IMG/VR virus record: IMGVR_UViG_3300035684_000001
Coordinates: 124,554-188,553 of that record
Length of the DNA: 64,000 nucleotides
DNA from: a virus
Reading direction: 5' to 3' (one strand)
Each line of letters begins with the position of its first letter. Position 1 is the first letter of the stretch. The translations under genes were made by a program, and so were the position numbers. Under the pieces are notes generated by a model. It saw only the letters and a program-made list of their open reading frames with translations, was not told the origin of the DNA and searched no databases. Shown here one piece after another: positions 4,881 through 63,549 of this stretch.

Positions 4881-5303
4881 ATGACACTCGTACAAGCTCA
4901 CCTCAGATTTGGTCGCGAACCCTTACAGATTCCATATCCCGAAGATTTTGAAGGGGATAAATACGACGGTGGAAATACAGACTTTGACGATGCTGAAATT
5001 TACATTTCTACTGAACCGAGATTTTTTACCCCTGACGAGATCGAAGTTGTTCAAGAGTACCTAAAAACCCTTCTTTATTCGCAAGAGTTGATTGAGACGG
5101 GCTGCATCATGATCGACGAAGACGATCCGCTCCTTGAATTCGATCACGACCAATTAGATGCTCTCGAACAAGATCAGTCGTTGCCTCAAACTCGCAAACC
5201 GATCGGCGGTGGAACTCGCCAGTTGTTCGAGCGGGTTTTGCTGATCAGGGAATACGGCTACAGAGGTACGGGGTTTAAAGGATTACCAGGAGCTAAAGAA
5301 TAA
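4881..5303 (+). CDS. Hypothetical protein upstream of the sheath
   Basis: Acidic 140-aa ORF whose stop overlaps the sheath start (TAATG). Confidence 0.6.
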   Translation: MTLVQAHLRFGREPLQIPYPEDFEGDKYDGGNTDFDDAEIYISTEPRFFTPDEIEVVQEYLKTLLYSQELIETGCIMIDEDDPLLEFDHDQLDALEQDQSLPQTRKPIGGGTRQLFERVLLIREYGYRGTGFKGLPGAKE

Positions 5304-8300
5304 TGCCCAGCGCTTTGCAACAATCAATCAAAATTTACGGACCCCCAGAAGGCGCACCCGGTGTGTCTGTAATCGAGCAGCGGTCAGTAAGTATGCTCGG
5401 CGATCCTCAATTTGGCGCGATCGCCCTTTGGGGAAATTTGCGTCGGGGTCCAGTCGGTTTGCCCGTAGCTATTTCATCGAAAAAGCAGTACCTAGAACTG
5501 TTCGGCGATCCCAAAAACCCGGCGTGGCACTTGTACGAAAACAGCGCCCACCTTTGCCCGGATGCAATTGACGGTTTTTTTGCAACTTCAAGGGGTAAAG
5601 GAATTCTATTCCTGTCGCGCCTCGAAATAGATAATGCTAGACCGGCCGAAATAATTATCAAGAACCGTCAAGGTGCGGACGCACTCAGAATCACCGCCGC
5701 CAACCCAGGTCGCTGGGGCGGATACAGAAATGAAATTCCGATTTCTACCGTTGTCGTGGCTACTTCACGGACGTTTACGCTCGTCGCACCTTCGGTAAAA
5801 TCCAATGAATTCATTGGAGCTAAGGTTCGTTTTACGTCCAACTCCGGCAAAACCTACGAAATAGTTGCAAACACGGCAGCAACAGATTCTGGTGAAGTAG
5901 TCTTCACAGTAGGAGCTCAGTACGATCTTGTAGCTGATGGAATTTCGGGTCCAATTTCCATCGACGGAACAGCCAGTTACGCAACAACGAGATCGCTCTC
6001 CGGTACAATTTCTTTTCCGCTTTTGGTTAATTTATCGGGTCAGTGTACGGCTAACCTGACTACAATTACTGGATTCTCAACCTTGTTTGTTTCCGAGTTG
6101 AAAGTAGGTGCAAACATCTATTTAAACGGCGAAGCGAGAAGGATCGAAAGCATTACTTCAGACACTACTTTAACTATCTCAGAACCCTTTAGCAGCGATG
6201 GTCGAGATTTAGTAATGCAGCGCGACAATCTCGTTGTAACAGGAGTAGGTACGGAATTTGTTTCGGAATTAAAACCAGGAGATTCAATTTATTACTCACA
6301 CGATGGCGAAGAATATAGCAGAGAAATTGCTGCGATCGCCTCTGCAACTTCTTTGACCCTTGTATCGGGTTTTGATTTTCCAATTTTAGCTGGCTCATCT
6401 GCTTACGCAGACAATCTGTGGGTGACAGGACAAAACTCGGAATACGAAATTGATATCAAGACTGGCGATGCAATTATCGATCCAAATCGCCGGGGCGAAG
6501 CTGCTACTGTAGTTGAAATTGATGCAGCCAATCAGAGGTTTAAGGTATTCCCCCGTTTTTCTTCAAGCTTTACCGACGCCCAATTGACGAAACAGTCTCA
6601 AAAAGTGCAGGTCAAGCTGGAACAACCAGAAAACGTTGGGCTGGCAATCGAAATTGGACAAGGAACTAAATATCCCGAAACTCATTTTTCATTGAAATGT
6701 TATTTCAATGGAACTTTGATGATTTCGGTTCCAGATGCTTCTCTAGAGAGGGAAGATCCTTATTTTGTCGAGACTATCGTCAATGACGGCAATATCGGCT
6801 ACCGCACCTCCGGACAAAATTATCAAACGTGGATTGTGGTTGAGTCGTTGTGGAGTTCGACTTACACGACGGGAATACAGTCTGACGTTCGCCCCTGCAA
6901 CGGTACTGGCCAAGTTTTGGAGTTGGCAGCTCAAAAACTTTATACAGTCGGTCAATTTGATTACAACGCGGTCATCGGTCGCCTGTTTGCCCCAAATCCT
7001 TACAAATATTCCCGCAACGCGCTGAGAATAAAAAATGCCAGCGCTCCTTTGACCTTAGAAGGAACGATAAGTTCCAGCGGCGTAGATGTTAGGGGTACGG
7101 GAACAATTTTCCGCAAGCAGTTGAAGCGCGGCGATTACCTTTACGATCCGGCATCGGGAACCGTTCGCAAAATTAGGTTGATTCCGAGCGACACCGAATT
7201 AATTCTTGAAACCATGTTTCTAAAGAATGTTCGGTCAGGGACAAAAGCACTGCGCTCTGGATATCTGCTTGTAGATCAAGGTAACGATCTTACGAACTAC
7301 TGTAAAGTTGGTGATCGGTTTTTGGTGTCTTACCCTGAATATTTAAAATTTGGGTATGATGGCGACACGGCTCGTTTAACTTCCTACAACTTTACCAAAT
7401 ATTTCGATCTTGATCGCAACTATTTAGTAACAGCAGTTTTTGGGAGAAATGTTGGACTCGTAAGAATGGCTGTTCCCGGTGTTTCCGACATATCAACTCA
7501 AAAAGCTGGCATTGAGTATGCGTATCAAAACGCTTTTGAGTATCGAGCAGAAATACCTTCCAATATCAACAATTCAGCAGTAGCGGAAGTTTTTATCGAG
7601 CAAGATTTGGAGCGCAACAATTATATGTCTGTTGCGTTTCCTTCTTATGGATATGTTTCCAACCCGAGGGGAACTGGCGATCGGTTTGTTTCACTTTCGG
7701 GCGACATTATGGGACTAGAAAGTGCCAAAGCAAGTTTAGCAGAAGGCTATCACCATCCCGCTGCTGGGCTTGACGCTCGTTTGTCAAGAGTAACAAAACT
7801 ACCGTTTACGCCCACTCCCAGCGATGAAGCAATTTTGAATTTAGTCGGCATTCAACCGATTAAAGTTTATGCCGGCAAAGTTATTGTTTGGGGTGCTAGG
7901 TGTCCGTCTGTTGACGATATTTATACCTTTCTCCATGTCAGGCGAATTCAGTCGAATTACCTGCGAGTGTTTATGGAAGCTAGAAGCTTCTTGCAAACAC
8001 TGTTTCAGCCAAATCAACCTGAATTAGCGCAGCAAATTGTACTAATTCTCGAAAGTTTTGCGCGACGGGAATACCAGAAAGGAGTTTACACTCGATATCT
8101 TTCTTTCGATCAAGCCGTAAGAATTGATTCTTCCGGTGGGGAGTCTGGCGATTTTGACGTAGTAGTTTCAATTCTCAATGGAGAATTGAATATTTATTAC
8201 GGGTACATTCCAACAGGTGTATTAGAAAGGTTGCAAATTTTTGTAGCCCCAGAAACAATTGTTTCTCGCGTTGGAAATAGCAGTGTAAATGCTAACTTTC

Positions 8301-8305
8301 TATAG
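5303..8305 (+). CDS. Contractile tail sheath protein (1000 aa) with inserted repeat domains
   Basis: N-terminal PGVSVIE...GPVGLPVAISSKKQYLELFGDP. C-terminal sheath fold motifs GYHHPAAG, LNLVGIQPIK...VWGAR, LHVRRI and FQPN. Confidence 0.9.
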   Translation: MPSALQQSIKIYGPPEGAPGVSVIEQRSVSMLGDPQFGAIALWGNLRRGPVGLPVAISSKKQYLELFGDPKNPAWHLYENSAHLCPDAIDGFFATSRGKGILFLSRLEIDNARPAEIIIKNRQGADALRITAANPGRWGGYRNEIPISTVVVATSRTFTLVAPSVKSNEFIGAKVRFTSNSGKTYEIVANTAATDSGEVVFTVGAQYDLVADGISGPISIDGTASYATTRSLSGTISFPLLVNLSGQCTANLTTITGFSTLFVSELKVGANIYLNGEARRIESITSDTTLTISEPFSSDGRDLVMQRDNLVVTGVGTEFVSELKPGDSIYYSHDGEEYSREIAAIASATSLTLVSGFDFPILAGSSAYADNLWVTGQNSEYEIDIKTGDAIIDPNRRGEAATVVEIDAANQRFKVFPRFSSSFTDAQLTKQSQKVQVKLEQPENVGLAIEIGQGTKYPETHFSLKCYFNGTLMISVPDASLEREDPYFVETIVNDGNIGYRTSGQNYQTWIVVESLWSSTYTTGIQSDVRPCNGTGQVLELAAQKLYTVGQFDYNAVIGRLFAPNPYKYSRNALRIKNASAPLTLEGTISSSGVDVRGTGTIFRKQLKRGDYLYDPASGTVRKIRLIPSDTELILETMFLKNVRSGTKALRSGYLLVDQGNDLTNYCKVGDRFLVSYPEYLKFGYDGDTARLTSYNFTKYFDLDRNYLVTAVFGRNVGLVRMAVPGVSDISTQKAGIEYAYQNAFEYRAEIPSNINNSAVAEVFIEQDLERNNYMSVAFPSYGYVSNPRGTGDRFVSLSGDIMGLESAKASLAEGYHHPAAGLDARLSRVTKLPFTPTPSDEAILNLVGIQPIKVYAGKVIVWGARCPSVDDIYTFLHVRRIQSNYLRVFMEARSFLQTLFQPNQPELAQQIVLILESFARREYQKGVYTRYLSFDQAVRIDSSGGESGDFDVVVSILNGELNIYYGYIPTGVLERLQIFVAPETIVSRVGNSSVNANFL

Positions 8306-11822: not shown

Positions 11823-11896
<74 letters not shown>

Positions 11897-20893: not shown

Positions 20894-21703
20894 ATGCCGA
20901 CATATTCTGACCATCTAAACGTTAACAATTATTCGATTTTTAATTTACAGGAAAGCGAAGACCCCTCTTCAGCAGTTCGTCGAGATTATGTGATGGCTCT
21001 AGTTGCTGCAATTGAAAAAAAGTTGATGGCGGCGATTGAATCTCGCACGACTGGCATGAACTACAAAAATTTGAAGTCTCCGTGCGAGATCGCCCTAACC
21101 TCTCATTTTAACATTGGCGTAGGTGGATTACCACCACTACAAGGAGTCACCTTGTCAGCAAATTCGCGAGTTTTGCTGACGGGTCAACAAAATCCAGCCG
21201 AAAACGGTCCATACGTTGCTCGTTCTGGAACATGGGTAAGAGCTTTCGATTCTAACGACCCAGCAGATTTTACGTTTGGGTTTACGGTCGAAATTTTGGG
21301 GGGCGATCCGGCAAATAAAGGGTTTTGGATGCTTACAACTCCAGATCCGATCGTCTTGGATCAAACGGCTTTAGTTTTTAAAAAACAAGAACGGGGTGGA
21401 ATTGAATTTTTGGGCGGGGGTGTGGGAGGTAACACGCCCGAAGCTGTTCGCAAATATTTGGGTGCAGCCGAAGAAATAATTTTTTCACCCCTAGGTGATG
21501 GCTCGACTACTGTTTTTACCGTTACTCACGGATTGAACAATCGATTTGTTCAAAAGCCAAGCATTATTCATTTAGCTGAAGGGCTAAATAAATATATGGA
21601 ACCATCCGTTCGAGTCCTGGATGAAAACAGGGTAGAAGTTACTTTTGGTCGCCCTCCTGATACTAATAGTTTTGCCATCACTATCGTCGGATTGCGCCAT
21701 TAA
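20894..21703 (+). CDS. Tail fibre / decoration protein (paralog of 21742..22740)
   Basis: KSPC..A...RVLLTGQQNPAENGPYVARSGTWVRAFD motif; C-terminal GDG..TVFTVTHGLN. Confidence 0.65.
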   Translation: MPTYSDHLNVNNYSIFNLQESEDPSSAVRRDYVMALVAAIEKKLMAAIESRTTGMNYKNLKSPCEIALTSHFNIGVGGLPPLQGVTLSANSRVLLTGQQNPAENGPYVARSGTWVRAFDSNDPADFTFGFTVEILGGDPANKGFWMLTTPDPIVLDQTALVFKKQERGGIEFLGGGVGGNTPEAVRKYLGAAEEIIFSPLGDGSTTVFTVTHGLNNRFVQKPSIIHLAEGLNKYMEPSVRVLDENRVEVTFGRPPDTNSFAITIVGLRH

Positions 21704-21741
21704 CCACACACAATTCACAAATATTTACAAGGAGCAACTAA

Positions 21742-22740
21742 ATGCTATTAGGCAGTAATATTAATGCCAACAATCTAACAATCAACCAGCTTGATCGTTC
21801 AATCGTCGATGGTTCTTCTGCTTGTCGCAATGATCGCGTCAGCAGTATTGAGAATGATTTCAACGCGCAAGCTGCGGCTCTTGAAGCGCAATTTCAAGCA
21901 GCAATAAACAACCTCGACACTAAAGAGTCTTGCCTTGTTGCCGCTACTGAAAACGTCGATATTGCAACAGGCGGACTGCTGACTATTCAAGATACTGTAC
22001 TGGCAATACGCGATCGCGTCCTGCTTACAGCGCAAACAGATCGCACTGAGAATGGTCCTTATGTTGTTGCTGCGGGCGCTTGGGCGCGCGCTGCAGACGC
22101 AGATGCAGATGCAGAAGTTACGTCAGGGATGGCGGTTCCTGTTGTTGGTGGCGACCTTGACAACCGCACTTTGTGGTTGCTGACAACTCGCGATCCGATC
22201 GTCCTAGATACAACCGATCTGACGTTCATTCGCAGTCGTTCGCCATACGAAACTACCGTCGCTGGCGGTGGTTTAGATTTAACCCCAGCCCACGTACTTT
22301 CGCTGATCGGTACACCGGATCGCGTTAGCGTTTCTGGTCCCGGGATTGACATTGCTCCTAACTACGCAGGTCAAGCATCTATCGCGGCTGTCGGCAATAT
22401 TGTCAATCCCGAAGCTCAATGGAATGGTCAGAAGATATCGATCGAGAGAGGCGGTACGGGCGAAACTACTGTTGCTGCGGCAAAGCTTGCTTTTGGTATC
22501 CCAGAAGAAATTTCGGCGACGATCGGTAACGGTACGGATACTGAATACCTTGTTACTCACGGATTGAACAACACAAAAACAGTGTTTGTTAAAGTGATGC
22601 GACGTTCCGACAACGAAGAAATTCAGGTTGGTGTAAAATACGCACTTAATAGCGTTACAGTCAAATTTGACGGCGCAGCACCTCCAACAGACTCTTATGA
22701 AGTCTCAATTATGGGGATAAAGAAACCTTTTTTGGGCTAA
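21742..22740 (+). CDS. Tail fibre / decoration protein
   Basis: KESCLVA...RVLLTAQTDRTENGPYVVAAGAWARAAD; IERGGTG; GNGTDTEYLVTHGLN. Confidence 0.65.
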   Translation: MLLGSNINANNLTINQLDRSIVDGSSACRNDRVSSIENDFNAQAAALEAQFQAAINNLDTKESCLVAATENVDIATGGLLTIQDTVLAIRDRVLLTAQTDRTENGPYVVAAGAWARAADADADAEVTSGMAVPVVGGDLDNRTLWLLTTRDPIVLDTTDLTFIRSRSPYETTVAGGGLDLTPAHVLSLIGTPDRVSVSGPGIDIAPNYAGQASIAAVGNIVNPEAQWNGQKISIERGGTGETTVAAAKLAFGIPEEISATIGNGTDTEYLVTHGLNNTKTVFVKVMRRSDNEEIQVGVKYALNSVTVKFDGAAPPTDSYEVSIMGIKKPFLG

Positions 22741-25154: not shown

Positions 25155-25496
25155 TTAAGCTTCCGGGTGACGCAGGAACTCAGAACCCCGATCGCCCGCC
25201 CGTTGAACTTTGACTTCCATTCCCGGATACATTTCGTCAAAAACCGAACCGACCTCGTTTTGGATCAAAAATTCCCGGACGTTCCGGGGTTCTCCGTTAT
25301 TTTCGAGCAAAAAGTAAGGAATCAGAGTATCGTTGTAGATACTTGTTTTATTTGATTTCCTTGGGATGTCGCGACCGTAAATAACTGGTGGCGACGCTCT
25401 GCGGGTAATCGAATCCCATATTAGAGTCATAAAAATAAATAAATTTCCTAGCCGGAGTCCCTGCAGATTGCGGTATTTTTTTTCGTTATGGTTCAA
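25155..25496 (-). CDS. Hypothetical protein
   Basis: 113-aa ORF divergent from the portal. Confidence 0.4.
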   Translation of the reverse strand: MNHNEKKYRNLQGLRLGNLFIFMTLIWDSITRRASPPVIYGRDIPRKSNKTSIYNDTLIPYFLLENNGEPRNVREFLIQNEVGSVFDEMYPGMEVKVQRAGDRGSEFLRHPEA

Positions 25497-26915
25497 AACA
25501 GCCTAACCCGATCGCCCGTCCCAGACTTTCAGTATCAGCAACGCGCCATTGCCTCATTATACAGTGCCTCGGAATACTTCAACCCGGTGGGTCACTTTAA
25601 TAAATCGCTCAACTGCGATCCAGTGAGTCCCCAAAAATTGAGGTCGATTTCTAAAAAGACACTGTTCTCGCGGGCGATCGAGCGGATTTCGAATGCTGTT
25701 GTGGCAATGCCGTGGACGATCGCCCCACCAGAAGAACTGAGCGATGATGAAGGAGCTCGAAAAAAAGCGCTCGAATTGACCAAGGCACTGAGCCAGCCGA
25801 ACAACGCGGAACACGACTTGTACAGCAGTTTTGTCAAGGCAGTAATCCGGGATATTCTGGTCATGGGGGTTGCAGCGGTAGAGAGGCAACCGGGAACTCA
25901 AGGATTTCAGCCTTTTTGGCTGTGGGTAGTGCCACCGGAAAAAGTTTACCTAGATGGAAATTGGGATGCGTCTAGGGAGGGTATACACCCCAAGTTTTGG
26001 TACTGTCAAAACCAAGACAGAAGTTCTTATCGTTATTTGGACGATACTAACTGGATACCGATCCTCAGTAAAAATCTTTTTTTAATTCAGAACCGATCCG
26101 CGAGTAACGAATTATTTCCGCCGTCTCCAGTCGCTTGTGCTTACGAACGGTTAAATACGTGGTTGGATCTCGATAACTATCAAAGCCGGATAGTGAACAA
26201 TCCGGTACGAGATTACATGATCACAGTTGAAAATGCTACTCACGATGAATTGCAACCGTTCCGAGAGTATTGGAAAGTCAACGTTGTAGGCTCGGGAGAG
26301 GTTCCGATCCTAGCAGGCAAAGTAGATGTCATAAAATTTGGAGCCAGAAACGACGAAGAGTTATTTTTGAAGTTCTCAGACTATCTGGCTGGGCTGATCG
26401 CGATCGAGTTTGGACTATCGAAGCGCGACTACGGAATTGATCCCCATGATAACCGATCAACGATGGGGCCCGCAGCGGATTTAACGTTCCAAGATGCAAT
26501 CTTGCCGATCGCCACCTGCGTAATTGAAAATTTAAACATCAAAGTTATTGACTTCTATGCTCCTGGATACACGTTGACGTTAACTGACACGGAGCCGAGA
26601 AAAGAAAGCGAGGAAGCTGACACAGCAAGCACTCTGTACACTAACGGAATTATTACAAAAAATGAAAGTAGACGGCGGGTCGGTGAAAAACCTTTAAGTG
26701 AAGAGGGGGGAGATAAATTTTTTGAAGGAAAAACGGGAACAACTGAGGAGACTCTTGCAATTCCAGCAGAACCTCCGATACTACCAATGGAGCTTCCAAC
26801 AATTCCGCCGCAGTCTAAACGAGAATCCCAAGGCAGAACTCGGCGCAAATCCCCGCGAAAACCCAAAAGGTCTTCCATTGAAGAAACTAATAGTATACAA
26901 TTATCATTATTCTAA
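25488..26915 (+). CDS. Portal protein
   Basis: AIERISNAVVAMPW, DILVMGVAAVE, IAIEFGLSK, GIITKNESR motifs; position ahead of protease and capsid. Confidence 0.85.
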   Translation: MVQNSLTRSPVPDFQYQQRAIASLYSASEYFNPVGHFNKSLNCDPVSPQKLRSISKKTLFSRAIERISNAVVAMPWTIAPPEELSDDEGARKKALELTKALSQPNNAEHDLYSSFVKAVIRDILVMGVAAVERQPGTQGFQPFWLWVVPPEKVYLDGNWDASREGIHPKFWYCQNQDRSSYRYLDDTNWIPILSKNLFLIQNRSASNELFPPSPVACAYERLNTWLDLDNYQSRIVNNPVRDYMITVENATHDELQPFREYWKVNVVGSGEVPILAGKVDVIKFGARNDEELFLKFSDYLAGLIAIEFGLSKRDYGIDPHDNRSTMGPAADLTFQDAILPIATCVIENLNIKVIDFYAPGYTLTLTDTEPRKESEEADTASTLYTNGIITKNESRRRVGEKPLSEEGGDKFFEGKTGTTEETLAIPAEPPILPMELPTIPPQSKRESQGRTRRKSPRKPKRSSIEETNSIQLSLF

Positions 26916-28722: not shown

Positions 28723-29778
28723 ATGGCTAATCACGTAAGCGACATTCGATTTGAAGATCCCCTTGCTGTTCAAGATTCCATGATTCAAGCAGGAGCTAGC
28801 AACCTAGGCGGGTTTGCAGTTCGCCAAGATTTTTTACCTTTGATTGGAGATTACCGCGTCAAAGTTACACAATTCTGGAAAAGAATTACTAACAAGCTTC
28901 CGGCAGCTTCCCCGATTATTCAAGAAATGATAACTTCTTCGTTGCCAACAGTTGCGTTTGCACCTAGAGGCAACTTAGAAGCTGTTCCCACTCAACCACC
29001 AATTTCGCTTGGGTATGGTCCTGGGCAAGAAGTTAAAGCAATAGTTGGTCGCATTCACTGCGAACACTTTGCTATGAGTATGGTTCACCAACAAAATAAT
29101 GCTTACGGCGATCAAATGTCAACAGACACTCACAACTTGATTCTGTCGGCAATGCGTTTCTTGGAAAGGTCTTTGTTTACCGGAAATGCAAGCGTTAACC
29201 AACTTGCTTTTAACGGAATGGTGGCGCAAATGCCACCTGAAAACCTTTTTACGGCAGACATTACGAGCGATAATCCAGACGCAATTCACGATAAAATCGA
29301 CGAAATTTGCTCAAGATCGGCGTATCGACCTAACTCGCTGATCGAACACTATCCAACACATATCTTTTGTAGTGGGGCTGGTGATCGACTAATCAAAAAA
29401 GAAATCAAGCAACTTCAGTTATATCACAACGTAAAAGAGATAACTCCTGGCGTTAAAGTGCCAGCTATTTCTACTTCATTTGGAGATGTAGAAATTGTTC
29501 CTACTGTTTATTTGCAAGATAAATCAGAAGAAGATGCAGATATCATTTCCTACTATATAGTCGATATGAATAATTTTGCTTGGTTCGGCGTTTATCCCTA
29601 CGGCGGTCAAAGAAAATTCGAGCCGCAAATATTTGACTTGAGCCACGTAGTGAACGGACTGCCGACCCTGCGAGAAAGAATGATTATTCTCTACGGGACT
29701 CCAAAAGCTATGGACGAAGGTAGGGGAATCTTTAGGCTCGACGTAAAAGCTCCTCGCGGTTCTAAGTTTGAGGGTTAA
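28723..29778 (+). CDS. Major capsid protein
   Basis: 351 aa following the protease. LERSLFTGNASVNQLAFNGM and ISTSFGDVEIVPT are HK97-fold-type motifs. Confidence 0.8.
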   Translation: MANHVSDIRFEDPLAVQDSMIQAGASNLGGFAVRQDFLPLIGDYRVKVTQFWKRITNKLPAASPIIQEMITSSLPTVAFAPRGNLEAVPTQPPISLGYGPGQEVKAIVGRIHCEHFAMSMVHQQNNAYGDQMSTDTHNLILSAMRFLERSLFTGNASVNQLAFNGMVAQMPPENLFTADITSDNPDAIHDKIDEICSRSAYRPNSLIEHYPTHIFCSGAGDRLIKKEIKQLQLYHNVKEITPGVKVPAISTSFGDVEIVPTVYLQDKSEEDADIISYYIVDMNNFAWFGVYPYGGQRKFEPQIFDLSHVVNGLPTLRERMIILYGTPKAMDEGRGIFRLDVKAPRGSKFEG

Positions 29779-31356: not shown

Positions 31357-32190
31357 ATGACCATCCAAGCACTGAAAGCTACCGTCTTAAAAGCTAAATT
31401 GAAAGATGCAGCAAGCCTGCAACCTTCAGAAAAAGCCTCGATCGCCCTCAGTCAAAGTTTATTCAATTACTCCGACCTAACCCCAGTTCGAGATCAGCAC
31501 TATCAAATAATGCTTGCCGACGGCATTGAGGCGATCGACGGCACCTTGATTAAAAAGGGCTACATTTACGCCCCGCACTGGCAGCTACCAAAATCTACGA
31601 CTCGACTGGATGTCAGGTATTTTAGCCAGGTTGACAATTACAGCGGTTATTTCGGCCCCGGAACGCGCCAGTGCAACCTGACAGCCTGTGCGATGTTTGC
31701 CGAACACCTGCTGGAAAAATTCGGTAAAAAAACCCTTTCCCAAAGAGCTGAGGATGACGGTTTGCAGGAGCCGGAAGACTACTACGGCAAAATTTTAAAC
31801 AAGTACGGCGACACGATCGACCACGGTGCTCAAACAAAAGCCCTGAGAGATCTAGGGATTGACAGTTATTTTAGTTACACCCTTGACGTTCCAGAAGCGA
31901 TCCATTCTCTTGAAAACGGCTATCCCGTGGTGCTAGGAGTCACTTACAAAGTTAGTGGCCACATGATTTTGTTGGTTGGGTACGATCGCGCCAAACGAGA
32001 ATTTTACGTTCACGACCCCTACGGTTCTCGGGCCGGTATTGCCGACTACTACGCGGTGGTCGGTGGCGATAGCGGAAAATATGATGTCTACACCCAAGAA
32101 TCTTTAGAGGCTATTTGGGGCGACAGCGGGTGGGGGCGGATTCCGGTTGCCGTTGGAGGGCGATCGACTGGACTGCCGACGAATTGGTGA
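31357..32190 (+). CDS. Peptidase C39-like protein (candidate cell-wall hydrolase)
   Basis: YFSQVDN...RQCNLTACAM (Cys), GHMILLVGYD (His), FYVHDPYG (Asp). Confidence 0.85.
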   Translation: MTIQALKATVLKAKLKDAASLQPSEKASIALSQSLFNYSDLTPVRDQHYQIMLADGIEAIDGTLIKKGYIYAPHWQLPKSTTRLDVRYFSQVDNYSGYFGPGTRQCNLTACAMFAEHLLEKFGKKTLSQRAEDDGLQEPEDYYGKILNKYGDTIDHGAQTKALRDLGIDSYFSYTLDVPEAIHSLENGYPVVLGVTYKVSGHMILLVGYDRAKREFYVHDPYGSRAGIADYYAVVGGDSGKYDVYTQESLEAIWGDSGWGRIPVAVGGRSTGLPTNW

Positions 32191-47450: not shown

Positions 47451-48659
47451 ATGCAAAAACAGCAACAATTGTCATTTTTTGAGAACGATCGCACAACTCA
47501 ATCAGAAGCGATCGCCATTACCACCGAATACCTAAAAGATTATTTCACCCGTTACAACTACGTGGCGATCGCCTACAGTGGCGGCAAAGATTCAAGCGCA
47601 ACAGTCAGTTTAATTCTCCACTTGATAGAAACAAAGCAGGTTCCGCGCCCCCGATCGCTCACAGTAATTTACGCGGACACTCGACTGGAGCTTCCGCCAC
47701 TACACGAAGCAGCAATGGCAATGCTCAGGGAGGTTGAACGACGGGGTTTTAACACAAAAATAGCTATAGCCCCGATCGCCAAACGTTTCCTTCCCTACAT
47801 CCTCGGTCGGGGCGTGACTCCACCAAACAATTCGACTTTCCGCTGGTGTACTGAGAAAATAAAAGTCAACCCAATGGACGAGGCACTTGCAGAAATCAGA
47901 AACGCTATGCCAGAAGGTGATCGCTTATTGATGATTACAGGTGTGCGGATCGGAGAATCCGCTGTGCGCGATCGACGCATCTTAACTTCTTGCTCGATCA
48001 ACGGTGCAGAGTGCGGGCAAGGTTGGTTTCAAAACGGCACTTACGACCGTACCGACAAGCTTGCCCCTATCCTGCATTGGCGCGTCTGCCAAGTCTGGGA
48101 ATGGTTAATAGCAGGAGAATTAGAACACGGATTCCCAACTTATGCGGTCGCTGAAGTGTACGGAGGCGACGAGGCTCAAGAATTAAATGCGCGAACCGGG
48201 TGCATTGGATGCCCGCTCACTAAAAAGGATACCGCTTTGGATGCACTGGTATCGCAGGACAAATGGAGTTACCTAGCACCGCTCAAGAAACTAAAACCTA
48301 TTTATGAAGAAATGCGGCTGTTTGAAAACCGCCTGCAAAAAAACGGAGAAGAACGCAAAAAAGATGGAACCCTAGTAGCAAATCCCAATAGAAGAGGCCC
48401 GCTAACGTTAGAGGCAAGAAGCAGATTCCTCGATCGCATCTTAGCGATTCAATCAGAAATCAACGAACGGGCGATCGAGTTGAATTCCCCGCAAGTATTT
48501 TTAATCGATGCAGAGGAAGAGGAATTTATTCGAGAGGCGATATCCAACAAGTTATTCCCTAACAAGTGGAGTGGAAACGAACCCAACGCTAGCGAACTGT
48601 TGCCTCACGTTTATCAAGACGGTTCAGTTCAATTGTTACTATTTCAGCAAAAACATTGA
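47451..48659 (+). CDS. PAPS-reductase-family (DndC-like) protein
   Basis: AYSGGKDSS PP-loop, YADTRLE, RWCTEKIKV.PM, TGVRIGES..R, RTGCIGC. Confidence 0.85.
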   Translation: MQKQQQLSFFENDRTTQSEAIAITTEYLKDYFTRYNYVAIAYSGGKDSSATVSLILHLIETKQVPRPRSLTVIYADTRLELPPLHEAAMAMLREVERRGFNTKIAIAPIAKRFLPYILGRGVTPPNNSTFRWCTEKIKVNPMDEALAEIRNAMPEGDRLLMITGVRIGESAVRDRRILTSCSINGAECGQGWFQNGTYDRTDKLAPILHWRVCQVWEWLIAGELEHGFPTYAVAEVYGGDEAQELNARTGCIGCPLTKKDTALDALVSQDKWSYLAPLKKLKPIYEEMRLFENRLQKNGEERKKDGTLVANPNRRGPLTLEARSRFLDRILAIQSEINERAIELNSPQVFLIDAEEEEFIREAISNKLFPNKWSGNEPNASELLPHVYQDGSVQLLLFQQKH

Positions 48660-48741
48660 CAAACTAAACAAGATATTGGCAATCCTTGAAAAAAATAATC
48701 TTGTCCCTAGTCCGATCGTCAACCAACACAAAACAAGAACA

Positions 48742-50481
48742 ATGTACAAACTGAGAAATTATCAAGAAGAAATAGAAGCCAAAGTAAACGAATTGTGGGA
48801 AAATGATATTCGCTGCATTATGGTGCAACTCGCTACTGGCGGTGGTAAAACACCTACGTTCGGGACGATTAGCGCACCTTTTTTAAAAAACGGGCTGCGT
48901 GTTTTAGTCATCGCCCACAGGGAAGAACTGCTTTTACAAGCCCAAGAAAAAATGGAGGCTATTTCTGGGGTTTCGGCGGGAATCATTAAAAACGGATACA
49001 AACCAAACCCTCTCTACAACTTACAGATTGCGTCGATCCAGTCGCTCGCCCGCCGCCAATATCTACCGCTAGCAGATTTGGTGATCGTTGACGAAGCACA
49101 CCACGCTTGCAGCCAGAGCTACACAAAAGTTTTAGAAAAATATCCCGATACCAAAATCTTGGGATTCACCGCAACACCGTGCAGAAATGACGGTCAAGGA
49201 TTTAAGTATCTATTTCAATAACTAATCTGCGGGCCGTCCACCAAGGAACTGATTGATCGCGGATATCTATCTCCGTACAAGCTGTACCAAGCTGGCAAAA
49301 CAATCAATACCAACAAAATCAAAAGCAGCGGTGGAGACTTCAATGCTGAAAAATTGAGCGAAGCGGTTGCCGAACAAATAGAGCCAAACGACGTAGTAGC
49401 TGAATGGAAGCGACGAGCAGGTGGCAAGCGGACGGTAGTTTTTGCCGTAGACGTTGCTAGGAGTCGCGAATATTCAGAAGCTTTTCAAGCTTCTGGAATT
49501 CCAGCGGAACATTTAGATGGAGAAACGGAAACGGGCGATAGGCGGGATGTTTTGCACAGGTTTGACTCAGGGGAGACGATCGTACTTTGCAACTGCGGAA
49601 TCATTTCGGAAGGTTTCGACCTTCCCGGTATTGAAGTTGTTCAGATTGTGCGACCTACAAAAAGCTTGAGCCTGTGGCTCCAGATGGTCGGTCGCGGACT
49701 GAGACTGGCAGACGGCAAGACTTTTGCCACAATCATCGACCATGGTAAAAGCTGGGAATCGCTGGGACTGCCAGACGAAGAAAGAGAATGGTCGCTGGAA
49801 CCTCAAAGCCTCGGGATAGAAGCTAAACGGTTCCTGCACGCTGTGTGCGAGTCGTGTTCTCACATCTTCAAGCCGCTGTCGCACGAGATTCCCGATCTAA
49901 AATGTCTTTGTCCAAACTGTCTAACTGAAAACACGTTCAAAGTAGGTAGCGGTGGAGCGGACAAACCAAAGCCAGTTTTAAACGCAAATGACAAAGACAA
50001 AGAGATCGATTTAACACCCAACCCAGCACACATTGCAATAATTGATGATTTATTGGCTAACTGCCGACGCCTTGAGTATCCAATTGCTTGGGTCTACCAT
50101 CAATTTATAGAAAAAAGCAAAGAGTGGCGATCGGAAATTTCTCTCGGTACTTGGCGATACTTAGCCAAAAAACTGGGTCATTCAACCAAGTGGGCCCGGC
50201 TCAAGTATCAGGAAGCCAACGAAGAAAGTAAGCCGTTAAGCGCGATCGAGTTACACCGCTTGTGGAGTAAAGCCTTAAACGAGGTTAGACCCTACGGAAC
50301 GCAGGCATTATTGAGACAGCACGGTCGCCTCGTTGATTTTACGAATAACACCGCAGAGATTAGAATTAACTCGCTTCCTCTATTAAAGATGGTCAAAGAT
50401 CGAGTTTGTAATATCGAAATAGCATTTAGAAAAGTTCTACAGCGAGAAATCTCAGCAAAACTAGGTGTTAAAAATAGCTAA
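48742..50481 (+). pseudogene. SF2 (DEAD/DEAH-like) helicase interrupted by an in-frame TAA at 49219-49221
   Basis: ATGGGKT, DEAHH, TATP, then FQ*LICGPS continuing in frame to helicase-C motifs (GFDLP, QMVGRGLR). Confidence 0.85.
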
Positions 50482-50837: not shown

Positions 50838-51326
50838 ATGAAAATCCTAAACAGGTTAAACACTTCTTTCAAGGACAAACAAGAGATAACACTAGATCTT
50901 GATGGATCGCAACTGAACGCAATCGTAGGGCAGAACTGTTCGGGCAAAACTTACGTCTTGAAAACTATAGCGCTTGAATTTAGTGGGTCTTACCACAAAC
51001 TCAGTTTTGCAGATCTTAGTAAAAATGTTAAGACAATTCCTTGGAGTGTTGATCAGGAACAAGTTCAAAGCGATGGTGGCTATTTGTGTAATGTACTTAG
51101 TTATATTTCTGAAAATGCGCCGAATAATTTTAGCTTTTTGCAAAATTGCTTGATCCGAATTATCCCTAATGTAGAAGCTGTATCAGTACACCCCTTTGAG
51201 GGGGGTACTGAAATCCAATTTAAAACAAAAAATATCGCGTGTATCCTAGTACGGGCGAAAGTTACAAGCAAATTGGGAATTCGGTTTGTGTATCGGTGGT
51301 GGAGGCGATCGCGCAAGAGATACTAA
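50838..51326 (+). pseudogene. Truncated AAA/ABC-type ATPase
   Basis: Walker A GQNCSGKT is present, but there is no Walker B or C-terminal half. Confidence 0.55.
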
Positions 51327-51424
51327 GTCAAAATTTGTTGTCAAGTTGAAACAATTTGGCGATCTAAATAAACCTTTACAGGTTTTATTGTGCTAAGCTT
51401 AAATAGTAAAAATCAACAAAAACA

Positions 51425-51805
51425 ATGACACGCAAAAACATCGAAAATCAATTAGCGATATCAGGGCTTACTTTAGCAAGTGTTCGTAATTTTTTCCAAT
51501 CTCCGCCCCCTACCTATTTGAACAAGGAACAGGCGGTATGCTACATTCTCTCGGTCTTGTTACAAAGGGATTCCTATGGAACGGAATTGACGAGTCACTT
51601 GGAAGAAAATTTTCCTACTTATCGTCTTTCGGATACGGTACTTTATAGTGCGTTAATTTTTCTTGAGAAAGAAGGGATAACGATCGCCTACTGGAAAAAA
51701 ACAGAAGGGCGCGGGCGACCGCGCCGAATGTACAGTATAGCAGCACAATGGCGGGAAGAAGCTCGGGTACTAGCTCATTTTTGGAACACACAGCACAATC
51801 AATAA
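51425..51805 (+). CDS. pex: Pex (circadian period extender) homolog, PadR family
   Basis: FFQSPPPTYLNKEQAVCYILSVLL..DSYGTEL..HLE...YRLSDTVLYSAL.FLE.EG...YWKK.EGRGRPRRMY matches my recollection of cyanobacterial Pex almost residue for residue. Confidence 0.85.
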   Translation: MTRKNIENQLAISGLTLASVRNFFQSPPPTYLNKEQAVCYILSVLLQRDSYGTELTSHLEENFPTYRLSDTVLYSALIFLEKEGITIAYWKKTEGRGRPRRMYSIAAQWREEARVLAHFWNTQHNQ

Positions 51806-52183: not shown

Positions 52184-52711
52184 GTGATACCATCAAAACA
52201 AAATGGATTTCTACCCATATATCTAATGACATACATTTACCCTGCCGCATATACCGCCGAACAGTTAGAAAAAATTTCTAACATAGTCCTCCTAACGGAC
52301 GTGGCTGCTGAAGACAAAGGCATTGAAGATTTATCGCCTTTCACCGAGCTCACGCGAATAGATCGTCTGTGGTTGAAAGGTAATAAAATTAGCGATCTCA
52401 GCCCGCTGACATCGCTAACCAAAATGGTACATTTAGATCTGAGAAAAAATAAAATAGTCAATCTCGCTCCACTGGCAGCGTTGACGAGATTGACTTGGCT
52501 TTACCTTGACGACAATCAAATTGTCGATCTTACACCGTTAGGTTCGTTAACCAACCTAACACGGCTAGATCTTATAAATAATAAAATTACGAGCCTCAAG
52601 CCATTAAGCTCGCTGCCCAACTTAGCCGAGCTTTTCATCACAGGAAATGACATTAGCCCGGAGGAAAAAAGCTCGTTTCAGAAAGCGCTGCCAAATTGCA
52701 TCATGCAGTAA
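52184..52711 (+). CDS. Leucine-rich repeat protein 4
   Basis: L.L..NKISDLSPL..LT repeats; C-cap FQKALPNCIM; flanked by hairpins at 52129-52163 and 52737-52767. Confidence 0.9.
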   Translation: MIPSKQNGFLPIYLMTYIYPAAYTAEQLEKISNIVLLTDVAAEDKGIEDLSPFTELTRIDRLWLKGNKISDLSPLTSLTKMVHLDLRKNKIVNLAPLAALTRLTWLYLDDNQIVDLTPLGSLTNLTRLDLINNKITSLKPLSSLPNLAELFITGNDISPEEKSSFQKALPNCIMQ

Positions 52712-59947: not shown

Positions 59948-61333
59948 ATGCAAGACTTAGGATTTTTCTGCCCAGACCTAGCGGCCGCCATCGGGCTCGA
60001 CGAAGCAGTAATTTTCAACAAACTTCAGTGGTGCGTCGAGAACCCGGCGATGAGCGGCACGATCGCCCCTGACGGACTAAAGATGATCCGAAATCCGATC
60101 GCCTGTACAGACCCGCGCAAACTGAGCAAGTCCCACGGCAAGAAAATAGACTGGCTCAGCAACTTCCCCTGGTTAACCGCCCACAAACTCCGCCGCATAT
60201 TTGCTCGACTTGAGGGATTGGGCTTGATCGTTGTACGCCAACTTCGAGCTCATACTTGGGATCAGTGCAAATACTATTCGGTGAACTATAAGAAGCTAGC
60301 TGAGCTGCTAGAACCCGCACAACTCTCGATTTGTGCAAAACCGCCAAATCGATCGCCCGAAAACGATCGCATCGATCTCGCGTCTGAGCGCAAATCATAT
60401 CAAAATACATCTTCAGAAAAAGTCTTTCAAGAAATCTCTCCCGGAGAAGCGGGCGGAACTATTGATAAATTTTTAGAAACAAAAAAAGAACTCGAACAAG
60501 AGAAGAGGTTGCCTGAAGATGGTCTGCTAGAAGCAAAGGTAGTTTCTGAACCCTGGCAAAAAAATGAAATCTTTGAAAAGGATAAATGTTCCGTGCTGTC
60601 GAGTTCGGTTGAGCGGAAATTGTTTTTTGAGAGGTTATTGGAGTATTGCTACCAGCGGACAGACATCGATTGCCCCGAGGGGTATGCCAACTGGGTAATG
60701 CGCGAGTCTAAGTCGAAAACACCTGAAGCCAGCGTGGCCCTGCTGTGGGATGAGTTTACCGCCGGCGAGGAATTGGGCAGCCGCTTAGTTCCCCCCGGCT
60801 TCAGGTTGCGGGGAGCACCGGAACGGGTGGTAGCTGAGGCGATCGCCCAGGACTGCATCAACAAAGTCGGCGCGACGACGACAGAAGCGGCCAAAAATGC
60901 AGCGGGGCAGTTGCGGAGATTGCCAGTTGTGGCGGCGGTGGCGAATGCTGTGAAATTGGGATTGGAGCGGGCGATTGAGGATGCGACGCGGCAAGTAGAG
61001 TTGGGAGTGCCGAAGCAACGGGCGATCGCCAACAACCTTCCAACTTATGCAAGTGCCTGCGTTGAAAATTCACTGCCGGAACTTCAGCTTGCTGCCGGCG
61101 GGGACGCAGTTGCAGAAGAAACAGAAGACCCTTACGCACCGACGCCGGAAAGTTTAGCAGCCCGGGAAAGAGCGCGATTGCTTCTCAACAAGAAGTTTGA
61201 CAAACCGACTAAGGCAGAAGAGATTTTGGCTGCTAATATTGCTGAATTTGTTGAAAAAGAAGCCTCCACAGTTGAATCTGCGAAGGCTGCAATTACCGAG
61301 AAACATGAAGACGAGGAACCAATACCTTGGTAG
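59948..61333 (+). CDS. Replication-initiator / replisome-organizer-like protein
   Basis: N-terminal FCPDLAAAIGLDEAVIFNKLQW...WL..FPW....LRRIF..LE..GLI...WDQCKYYSVNY wHTH pattern. Confidence 0.6.
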   Translation: MQDLGFFCPDLAAAIGLDEAVIFNKLQWCVENPAMSGTIAPDGLKMIRNPIACTDPRKLSKSHGKKIDWLSNFPWLTAHKLRRIFARLEGLGLIVVRQLRAHTWDQCKYYSVNYKKLAELLEPAQLSICAKPPNRSPENDRIDLASERKSYQNTSSEKVFQEISPGEAGGTIDKFLETKKELEQEKRLPEDGLLEAKVVSEPWQKNEIFEKDKCSVLSSSVERKLFFERLLEYCYQRTDIDCPEGYANWVMRESKSKTPEASVALLWDEFTAGEELGSRLVPPGFRLRGAPERVVAEAIAQDCINKVGATTTEAAKNAAGQLRRLPVVAAVANAVKLGLERAIEDATRQVELGVPKQRAIANNLPTYASACVENSLPELQLAAGGDAVAEETEDPYAPTPESLAARERARLLLNKKFDKPTKAEEILAANIAEFVEKEASTVESAKAAITEKHEDEEPIPW

Positions 61334-61336
61334 GAC

Positions 61337-62023
61337 TCAAGCCCGACAATTGAACTCTTCGCGGTTCGCTTTTTCGCAGCGTTCAAAATTTCCGCCTCGA
61401 AAAAGGGCCGTCAACTCGCACTGGTTTTGAGTGCGGTTTTCAAACAAATTTTCGTGCAAAGTTTTTTTTAGGCTTGGCAGACCCAGCTCTTTTTCTAAAT
61501 CGATAGAATGTTTGATTCGCTTGATCGTACTGAGGTTGCCATTTTTCAGGTGAACGTCCAAAGTATGGTTGTTGTTTACAAAACGCGAAACTGAAGCTTT
61601 CAATTTTTCTAGCGCGATTGCCAAAGAGTCTTCTTTTCTGCGACCAATTTTTTGAGCGACTAATTCGGCTGTCCGAACATCAACAAACCACATTTTTAGA
61701 GTGGTGGTCGAAATAAAAACCGAATTGTTCTCGCGTTCGAGGAGGATCTCCGTTGCCGTATCTACATTTCGCATACTGTTTAGAATTGCAGGCTGCACGA
61801 TCGCCCGCAGTTCTGCAAACAGTTGATTGCTGGGGTTTTTCCCTAGTTCTACCGTTAAAAACGAGTAAAAAACAGTTTTAATTTTGGCATTGGGAGTATC
61901 CTCCCGCATGACAACCGAGATTTCCCCTTTTGTAGTCGAGTCGTTTTTGGTATTTTTTTTGAATTCCTCTTCAACTCGGGCTATTTGATCCCATACTGCA
62001 TTAAACCGAAAAGAGTTGTTCAT
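61337..62023 (-). CDS. Hypothetical protein
   Basis: 228-aa ORF coupled to 62023..63096. Confidence 0.55.
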   Translation of the reverse strand: MNNSFRFNAVWDQIARVEEEFKKNTKNDSTTKGEISVVMREDTPNAKIKTVFYSFLTVELGKNPSNQLFAELRAIVQPAILNSMRNVDTATEILLERENNSVFISTTTLKMWFVDVRTAELVAQKIGRRKEDSLAIALEKLKASVSRFVNNNHTLDVHLKNGNLSTIKRIKHSIDLEKELGLPSLKKTLHENLFENRTQNQCELTALFRGGNFERCEKANREEFNCRA

Positions 62024-63096
62024 CAGCTCGTCAACTCGTCGGAACCATAAATGAACTGAGAAAGCTGCGGCCAGGGGATTTGGTGCTGCACGTTTTTTTG
62101 GCAGTGATAGCAGAAAATTTGGAACGTTTGAGCAGGTCCTATGTCTAATAAAGGTTTTAAGCCCATTAGTACCGCTTTAATGTCGGCGATCGACATTGCA
62201 TTGTAAAGTTCCTTGCCGAAAGGTCTAGAGTTTTTGGACTGCCCGTAGATTTCGCTTTCGGGTACGGCAACGATCATCTCGTGCATAACTTTGAACTCGC
62301 TGCTACCTTCTTGTTCCTGGTTTGCAACCTCTCCTACCTGAAACCATTTCAACGGCTCCACAAAAAACTTAGTAATTTTTGTGGAACCTCCATCAGAAAA
62401 CCCGCGCGGCAGTGCAATCTCAAAAACTGGTTTGGCTATCGAGTCGGTTTCGTACAGTTTCATTTCCACCAGTCGCAAGGAATATTCTCCCGTCTCTCGC
62501 GGGTCATGTTTGATCCGCTTTGCATCCTCACAACCGCATTCGGTGTCGATCGCGTAATCAAATGGCGTCCTCGGCTGCTGTTCCGGTTTTATGTCGCCTT
62601 GGAAAGCACAGGCGGAACCCACAACTTTCAGCCGGCAGGCATAAATCAAAGTGACGACATCTTCCCGGTACATCCGTTCAATGAGCATTTCGGTGGAGAC
62701 GCTCATTTTTTTTGCAATGTCGGCGATCGGGTATTTTCCAAAATGCGTTACAGCTTTTGCGAGGAAACTTGATGCGATCTTCACGACTCGCTGGAGCGAC
62801 AGTTTCTGCCTTTCCATCATTCTCGATAGCAGACCGTTATAGGCTCCTGTATCGATATTGTCTGCTAGCGTGTAATCTCGCAGTCTTTCTGTCGATCCGT
62901 CTTCTGTAGGTTGGCAATAAAGCCCAAACGGTAGCGTTGGAAGGCTTTCGGGACTGAAGTCGCCGTATTTAACGGTTGACAATCGAACTTCTTTGACTGG
63001 AATAGCGTTGGCTAGTTTGCCTGAAGAGGCTGGGCTGATGGAGTCTATAGTGACTGCATCTGCCGGAAAACTGGGATTACCAGCGGTCGGAGTCAT
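62023..63096 (-). CDS. Putative baseplate-hub / tail assembly chaperone (T4 gp26-like)
   Basis: RTPFDYAIDTECGC, LPRGF, LKWFQV and C-terminal CYHCQKNVQHQIPW...F. Confidence 0.5.
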   Translation of the reverse strand: MTPTAGNPSFPADAVTIDSISPASSGKLANAIPVKEVRLSTVKYGDFSPESLPTLPFGLYCQPTEDGSTERLRDYTLADNIDTGAYNGLLSRMMERQKLSLQRVVKIASSFLAKAVTHFGKYPIADIAKKMSVSTEMLIERMYREDVVTLIYACRLKVVGSACAFQGDIKPEQQPRTPFDYAIDTECGCEDAKRIKHDPRETGEYSLRLVEMKLYETDSIAKPVFEIALPRGFSDGGSTKITKFFVEPLKWFQVGEVANQEQEGSSEFKVMHEMIVAVPESEIYGQSKNSRPFGKELYNAMSIADIKAVLMGLKPLLDIGPAQTFQIFCYHCQKNVQHQIPWPQLSQFIYGSDELTS

Positions 63097-63213
63097 TGTG
63101 CAAAGTATTAAAATTTCTATCTTTGAGGTTAGTACCTTTATTTTTAAACGGACGAAAAAATTGCAAAAAGTTACTACTGACGATATATTGACTTATATTG
63201 GAATTTATTACGT

Positions 63214-63549
63214 ATGTCGTGCATTATGACCAATGTCAAGGTTCTCGATATAACAATTAAGGAAGAAGCCTTGCTTCGCAGTTTGTACGATCAAGATTTG
63301 TACGGCTTGGAGATATCTCGTTTGATCTGTGAAAAAACAGACAATACAACCAATTATCAATCTGACGCGCTTTATCCAGCTCTTAGAAAATTAGAACAAA
63401 AAGGCTGGATAATTTCAAGATGGGGGAATGAATTAGAAGGGGTGCGGCGGAAGTATTATCGAATTACGGAAGCCGGGAAAGTTGTAATACAAAATCGCCA
63501 GTTGTTTTTGAATCGACTGGCGATCGTTGATGTTGATTCGGAGAAGTAA
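63214..63549 (+). CDS. PadR-family transcriptional regulator (generic, not Pex)
   Basis: LYGLEI...ALYPALRKLEQKGWIISRW...RRKYYRITEAG. Confidence 0.9.
   Translation: MSCIMTNVKVLDITIKEEALLRSLYDQDLYGLEISRLICEKTDNTTNYQSDALYPALRKLEQKGWIISRWGNELEGVRRKYYRITEAGKVVIQNRQLFLNRLAIVDVDSEK

Follow-up and report, generated by a model that had tools for sequence, protein, structure and literature searches.

Cyanophages are known to carry host-derived auxiliary and takeover genes, such as psbA and nblA, most of which encode metabolic or photosynthetic proteins. Their infections follow day-night rhythms, for which light and host photosynthesis, rather than clock control by the virus, have been held responsible (PMC6628666). 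In the host, Pex acts at the input of the KaiABC clock and negatively regulates kaiA, its only experimentally known target, and loss of pex shortens the period by approximately 1 h (PMC12000584, PMC5520375). Darkness increases pex expression, according to a paper title in the references of PMC12000584. Pex has been reported as exclusive to Cyanobacteria, some of which contain KaiA but no Pex (PMC5520375).

The DNA analyzed here (the window) is the final 64 kb of a 188,553-bp IMG/VR record (G000), and it contains a pex-like open reading frame (Table 1). Like genes of the psbA/nblA type, phage pex comes from a host and is maintained in a lineage of phages by purifying selection, and it plausibly holds host physiology in a state favorable to replication; unlike them, it encodes a transcription factor that belongs to clock input. 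Its location inside a bona fide phage genome and its conservation across related phages, together with this selection, are attributes expected of an auxiliary gene.

Table 1. Positions in the window of pex, of its upstream elements, and of the phage genes named in the text
Feature	Position	Strand	Remarks
Sheath-like	5303-8305	+	PHROG
Head-decoration-like	20894-22740	+	PHROG
Portal	25488-26915	+	PHROG
Major-head-like	28723-29778	+	PHROG
Endolysin	31357-32190	+	PHROG
PAPS-reductase-like gene	47451-48659	+	Upstream part of conserved module
ResIII/DEAD helicase	48508-50481	+	Upstream part of conserved module
N-terminal fragment of AAA/SMC-type ATPase	50838-51326	+	162 aa; weak AAA_15/AAA_23 matches, N terminus only
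Conserved pex upstream region	51356-51424	+	Includes short A-rich leader
HIP1-like GGCGATC	51358-51364		
Inverted repeat ATAAAC-N9-GTTTTAT	51368-51388		
Extended -10-like element TGCTAAGCT (TGCTAAnnT)	51391-51399		
pex-like ORF	51425-51805	+	ATG start, 126 aa, stop codon included in coordinates
Small leucine-rich-repeat (LRR) protein	52184-52711	+	LRR_4/LRR_8; conserved downstream neighbor of pex
Replication-initiator-like gene	59948-61333	+	PHROG replication-initiation matches
Two genes without assigned function	61337-63096	-	Downstream end of module
Generic PadR	63214-63549	+	Downstream end of module

The phage Pex protein

The open reading frame is intact, as an earlier note on this DNA had stated, and its translation contains all of the Pex motifs quoted there, PPPTYLNKEQAVCYILSVL, DSYGTEL, YRLSDTVLYSALIFLE, and YWKKTEGRGRPRRMY. 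Pfam recognized a PadR domain (PF03551) at residues 41 to 112 with 42.5 bits, for a cut-off of 27 bits; NCBIfam had no specific model for the protein. Among the sequences of solved structures, the Pex entries (S. elongatus 2zfw and 2e1n, and Anabaena 2dql) matched residues 9 to 121 with E values of 3e-39 to 4e-39 and approximately 137 bits, whereas the best non-Pex PadR reached only 32 bits (E value of 6.7e-07). This distance between Pex and the other PadRs places the Pex assignment far beyond chance.

The AlphaFold2 model, with a pLDDT of 89.6, shows helices, a two-strand wing, and a C-terminal helix. Pex crystal structures (2dql and 2e1n) took ranks 1 to 3 in a Foldseek comparison with this model, with TM scores of 0.78 to 0.90, rmsd values of 1.7 to 1.8 Å, and 56 to 58% identity, followed by LmrR and other PadRs at TM scores of approximately 0.6. 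As judged from its sequence and modeled fold, the product is a true Pex-subfamily PadR winged-helix regulator. The membership in the Pex family that had been proposed at the outset thus holds for sequence, fold, and phylogeny (see below), and the protein does not group with generic PadRs. We regard it as almost certain that the gene encodes a phage-borne, functional DNA-binding regulator of this family.

The second PadR gene of the window, at 63214, had been called clearly different from pex, and this is the case: the two products are 29% identical over 75 aa (E value of 0.007), and the second one matches generic PadR structures only. Generic PadRs, including this copy, share the superfamily and the winged-helix DNA-binding domain with phage Pex, but they lie approximately 100 bits below Pex in the solved-structure comparison and lack the Pex motifs. 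With the cellular Pex proteins of S. elongatus PCC 7942 and Anabaena (2e1n, 2zfw, and 2dql), phage Pex has in common the fold, the signature motifs, the recognition helix, and the Arg-rich wing. Unlike them, it is encoded by a virus and belongs to a separate clade on a long stem, and it carries an N-terminal extension of 13 to 14 residues relative to most Pex proteins of filamentous hosts.

Phage Pex does not differ from the cellular Pex consensus in its recognition helix (YRLSDTVLYSAL) or its wing (EGRGRPRRM). The wing is the element said to recognize DNA in the structural work on Pex by Arita et al. in 2007. In an alignment of 24 phage and cellular Pex proteins, the invariant positions are F24, PP27-28, Y31, E35, AVCY37-40, SYGT50-53, SDTVLY69-74, FLE79-81, YW89-90, GRGRPR95-100, and M102. 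These family-invariant columns are likewise invariant inside the phage clade, where R96-R100 and S69-Y74 do not vary.

Approximately seven changes are specific to the phage clade, all of them outside the DNA-reading residues. Phage Pex has Q36 where cellular Pex has Leu, M56 for Ile, K82 for Asp or Glu, T93, adjoining the wing, for an invariant Val, L105 for Ile, F119 for Leu, and Q123 for an invariant Tyr. The K82, T93, and Q123 changes could alter the specificity or the partners of the protein, which counts against an action on the host clock.

The phage genome and the module around pex

The earlier note had placed pex among phage genes, and its surroundings bear this out: the sheath, portal, head, and endolysin genes of Table 1 are accompanied in the window by two DNA methyltransferases, a DHH phosphoesterase, the PAPS-reductase-like gene, the helicase, and the replication-initiator-like gene. 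A GH19/M23 lysin and an S74 fiber-chaperone domain are encoded elsewhere on G000, upstream of the window. A second IMG/VR record of 188,942 bp (G001) shares its portal and sheath with G000, at identities of 94% and 88%, respectively. It is a reverse-complemented circular permutation of G000: both ends of G001 adjoin each other inside G000, at approximately 38.6 and 41.8 kb, and both ends of G000 adjoin each other inside G001, at approximately 32.2 and 34.6 kb. The parent of G001, JGI contig Ga0376087_0000040, is 194,977 bp long, and its last 137 bp are identical to its first 137 bp. An independent NCBI assembly reads through this junction with 99.97% identity, into a terminase-like gene. The genome of this relative, approximately 194.8 kb in size, is thus either a closed circle or circularly permuted.

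The circular permutation, the 137-bp end overlap, and the junction read-through together show that G000 is essentially complete and has no host flank; pex is located deep inside the replicon. The approximately 6 kb that had been cut from the G001 parent (188,943-194,977, corresponding to 10,914-16,948 of contig L040) are phage DNA, colinear with G000 at 38.5 to 40.9 kb, and contain an IS607-type element (resolvase and TnpB) that is not in G000, as well as an HTH_3 gene and a Peptidase_M78 (ImmA-like) gene. G001 carries the label "provirus" in IMG/VR because this phage DNA with its IS element was trimmed off. Both the label and the 67% completeness that CheckV gives for G000 look like artifacts. 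With virion genes, the permutation between G000 and G001, and a closed relative, the proposal that pex lies on a phage genome and not on a host chromosome has been confirmed.

The HIP1 motif (GCGATCGC) occurs 112 times, against approximately 1.5 expected, which indicates a cyanobacterial host. The suggestion that the phage uses Pex for timing its induction presumes a prophage and is without basis. Neither a tyrosine integrase (PF00589), nor a serine recombinase (PF00239), nor ParB (PF02195) was found on G000, PF00589 was likewise absent from G001, and the phage portal was absent from 401 sampled cyanobacterial genomes, so that a prophage state is unsupported. No KaiB or KaiC was found on the viral replicon. 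The reported distribution of the family, beside kai genes in cyanobacterial genomes, thus does not extend to phage Pex, but a distribution is not a molecular criterion; the viral location is what makes the protein new and is no argument against its membership in the Pex family.

Two further features of the genome were noted. A 672-aa histidine kinase (HisKA and HATPase_c) is encoded on the minus strand of G000 at 94,681-97,121 (contig L028, 682-3122), adjoining a 136-aa stand-alone receiver. We considered this kinase as a light or clock sensor and rejected the idea, as only the kinase core matches known families; its 440-aa N-terminal sensor region gave no Pfam match at an E value of 0.001 or below and no PDB or NCBIfam match. 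A tRNA-Met gene (CAT) at 11823-11896 of the window is located directly upstream of a 636-aa ORF without a PHROG match.

In contigs from JGI, ENA, Logan, and NCBI, gene order around pex is kept. One or more methylases, a DUF5131 gene, the PAPS-reductase-like gene, the helicase, and a variable slot precede pex, which is followed by the small LRR protein, small ORFs, an approximately 460-aa Rep, proteins of 228 and 355 aa, and the generic PadR. Across at least five metagenome assemblies that are independent of each other, pex thus resides in one replication and DNA-modification module. The variable slot, occupied here by the ATPase fragment, contains a DUF488-N3a gene and/or a methylase and small ORFs in the relatives. 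The LRR gene lies directly downstream of pex in the related contigs L002 (10495-11007), L003 (8735-9232), and L006 (11190-11705), with 72 to 91% identity and a product of approximately 161 to 175 aa in the related phages. The downstream end of the module (59948 to 63549) is syntenic in the same three contigs. More distant relatives found through Rep (L035 to L038) have neither synteny nor pex and are uninformative on its gain or loss.

The helicase gene of the window is a single frame except for an in-frame TAA at 49219-49221, where L002 has TCA. Its product is 92% identical to the L002 protein, and the gene is intact, with 579 aa, in L002 and L006. The TAA may have arisen by nonsense mutation or through a sequencing error, or it may be read through.

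Origin and selection of phage pex

The nearest relatives of phage Pex are full-length metagenomic proteins with 60 to 88% identity (P0002 to P0011). A tree built from the 120 nearest proteins placed all 11 Pex sequences from phage contexts in one clade, with an SH-aLRT support of 100 and a long stem. In a second tree, rooted with generic PadRs and complemented with representatives at 50% identity, the phage clade (support of 99) falls within a Pex clade of 73 rows (SH-aLRT of 89), in a polytomy with cellular Pex groups; the alignment is short and many forks of this tree are unresolved. The closest named cellular Pex proteins belong to the filamentous genera Okeania, Microcoleus, Kamptonema, Kastovskya, and Trichodesmium and are 55 to 70% identical. 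Phage pex derives from cellular cyanobacterial Pex by one acquisition, and within the known Pex family it represents a new clade that is specific to viruses. Among GTDB species genomes, all 12 matches were of the host type and none of the phage type.

Pairwise comparisons of four phage pex genes yielded dN/dS values of 0.09 to 0.24 with dS values of 0.5 to 2.4, which shows clear purifying selection. The Pex proteins of G000 and G001 are approximately 70% identical and have evolved faster than the virion proteins (88 to 94%). pex is a fixed, selectively maintained part of an approximately 190-kb contractile-tailed cyanophage lineage.

This lineage was the only one to match when 2.9 million IMG/VR contigs were searched with phage-type and universal Pex motifs, and 50,697 GenBank phage records contained no Pex. 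No other virus-encoded clock component turned up in the viral records and literature searched, nor did the literature search return a paper joining cyanophages or phages with Pex, the period extender, or an encoded clock gene. Within this scope, the earlier claim of novelty stands, and the idea of a virus with a clock input factor appears to be undescribed.

Three unusual Pex-like proteins came up among the relatives. P0003 is a phage-type Pex of 200 aa with a C-terminal extension of approximately 75 residues, which may reflect a fusion or a lost stop codon. P0121, a 364-aa representative protein, contains three Pex-like stretches, i.e., a tandem Pex fusion. The MinION-only assembly of Cyanobacteriota bacterium JS3 (L020 and L021) has two Pex-like frames with stops or frameshifts, which may be pseudogenes or long-read errors.

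Control of pex and its possible targets

Four phage genomes show unusual conservation over approximately 100 nucleotides 5′ of pex, whereas the coding DNA of pex is just 72 to 88% identical. The conserved region contains an inverted repeat and an extended -10-like element (Table 1), to which we assign putative operator and promoter roles on the basis of sequence features; a generic sigma-70 scan called no promoter in this region. The repeat together with its GTTTTATYGTGCTAA core occurs once in the 188.5 kb of G000 and not at all in shuffled sequences. Located in the putative promoter of pex itself, it may be an autoregulatory operator. As the repeat is single on the phage, no phage regulon is visible. 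An operator shared with the host was sought and rejected: the repeat and the 15-nt core gave only chance-like matches away from promoters upstream of 12 host pex and 4 host kaiA genes. The conserved region of the phages differs from the upstream regions of the host pex genes compared. The "cassette-type leader" that had been attributed to the gene could not be upheld, since AAAAATCAACAAAAACAATG (51408-51427) is single in the window even when up to three mismatches are allowed.

Relatives of the likely hosts contain kaiA and their own host-type pex, showing that a target for phage Pex exists. We propose that during infection the phage would make its own Pex from its own promoter, free of the control that induces host pex in the dark. 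As a dimer, phage Pex would occupy host Pex operators, chiefly the negative element upstream of kaiA. Such binding is to be expected because the DNA-reading surfaces are the same as those of cellular Pex. Less KaiA would lower KaiC phosphorylation, and the resulting false "night" input would delay or hold the clock, and with it the clock-driven day/night transcription program, decoupling host physiology from the real time of day to the benefit of the phage.

That phage Pex is a regulator of the host clock acting through host Pex operators or kaiA has, with its presumed target included, close to an even chance of being correct. The host Pex regulon or kaiA may be the main target, at a likelihood slightly under one half, and repression of host kaiA would be the most likely mechanism. 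The complete scheme, in which the phage represses host kaiA with its own Pex, forces a false time-of-day signal on KaiABC, and would represent the first virus-encoded manipulator of a prokaryotic clock, is offered tentatively, as somewhat more probably wrong than right. In front of the host kaiA and pex genes compared, the phage repeat has no equivalent, which weighs against an action on the host clock; so do two published observations. Pex function is known from S. elongatus only, where the effect of pex loss is modest (PMC12000584), and, according to a report cited in PMC6628666, cyanophage AS-1 infects clock mutants normally.

A contrasting explanation, on the whole unlikely but deserving attention, is that a Pex-derived repressor acts on phage promoters only, i.e., its own and perhaps those of early or late genes, for instance to pause the phage program, with no designed effect on the clock. 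Many PadR regulators are autoregulatory, and the inverted repeat, conserved in four phages, and the putative promoter of pex overlap; a second, generic PadR is encoded in the same module, and the phage clade has its long stem and its specific substitutions. Yet the repeat and core are single in the genome, leaving such a regulon without visible members, and the identity of helix and wing with cellular Pex means that phage Pex is expected on host Pex sites too, "intended" or not. The same conservation bears on an anti-Pex role, in which phage Pex would form inactive heterodimers with host Pex or compete with it without repressing, so that kaiA would be de-repressed and the clock shifted toward "day." The C-terminal helix and helix 1 mediate dimer contacts in PadR proteins; the clade-specific residues F119 and Q123 lie in the former and Q36 in the latter, and the 55 to 70% identity to cellular Pex would also speak for this role. 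However, a pure poison subunit would not need the DNA-binding elements that are strictly conserved in the phage clade (R96-R100 and S69-Y74), and we consider this role very improbable.

Phage Pex might also serve a host Pex regulon outside the clock, such as dark or stress metabolism, with incidental effects on the clock. Pex targets beyond kaiA are unmapped and the clock phenotype of the pex knockout is small (PMC12000584), and KaiA-containing cyanobacteria that lack Pex would fit such a regulon (PMC5520375), but the sole experimentally known target is kaiA (PMC12000584, PMC5520375), making this reading improbable. Finally, pex could be an artifact: the gene might belong to host DNA, brought in by a chimeric contig or present as the flank of a provirus, or it might be a passenger in decay. 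The "provirus" label of G001 and the CheckV value of G000 would point that way, but the circular permutation with its 137-bp overlap and independent read-through, the trimmed "flank," which consists of phage DNA and an IS607/TnpB element, the gene order shared by at least five assemblies, a monophyletic clade apart from all cellular Pex, purifying selection, and GTDB matches that are all of the host type effectively refute this extremely improbable explanation.

With a conserved, selected viral Pex, there is a concrete candidate through which viruses may interfere with a circadian oscillator, and one that can easily be tested: phage Pex is a small, soluble protein, a reporter system in pex-null S. 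elongatus exists, and crystal structures have been solved for its cellular homologues. If phage Pex acts on kaiA, timekeeping would join the host processes taken over by phages, and the protein would be a natural tool for perturbing clock input. If it acts on phage genes only, a host clock regulator would still have been recruited as a phage transcription factor.

A direct repeat, TTACAATTAATTACA, is common to the kaiA upstream regions of Oscillatoria, Spirulinaceae, and Kastovskya metagenome-assembled genomes (L029, L031, and L032), and an extended -10-like element, TGYTAAnT, comes after it. The repeat resembles the HLR1 motif bound by RpaB.
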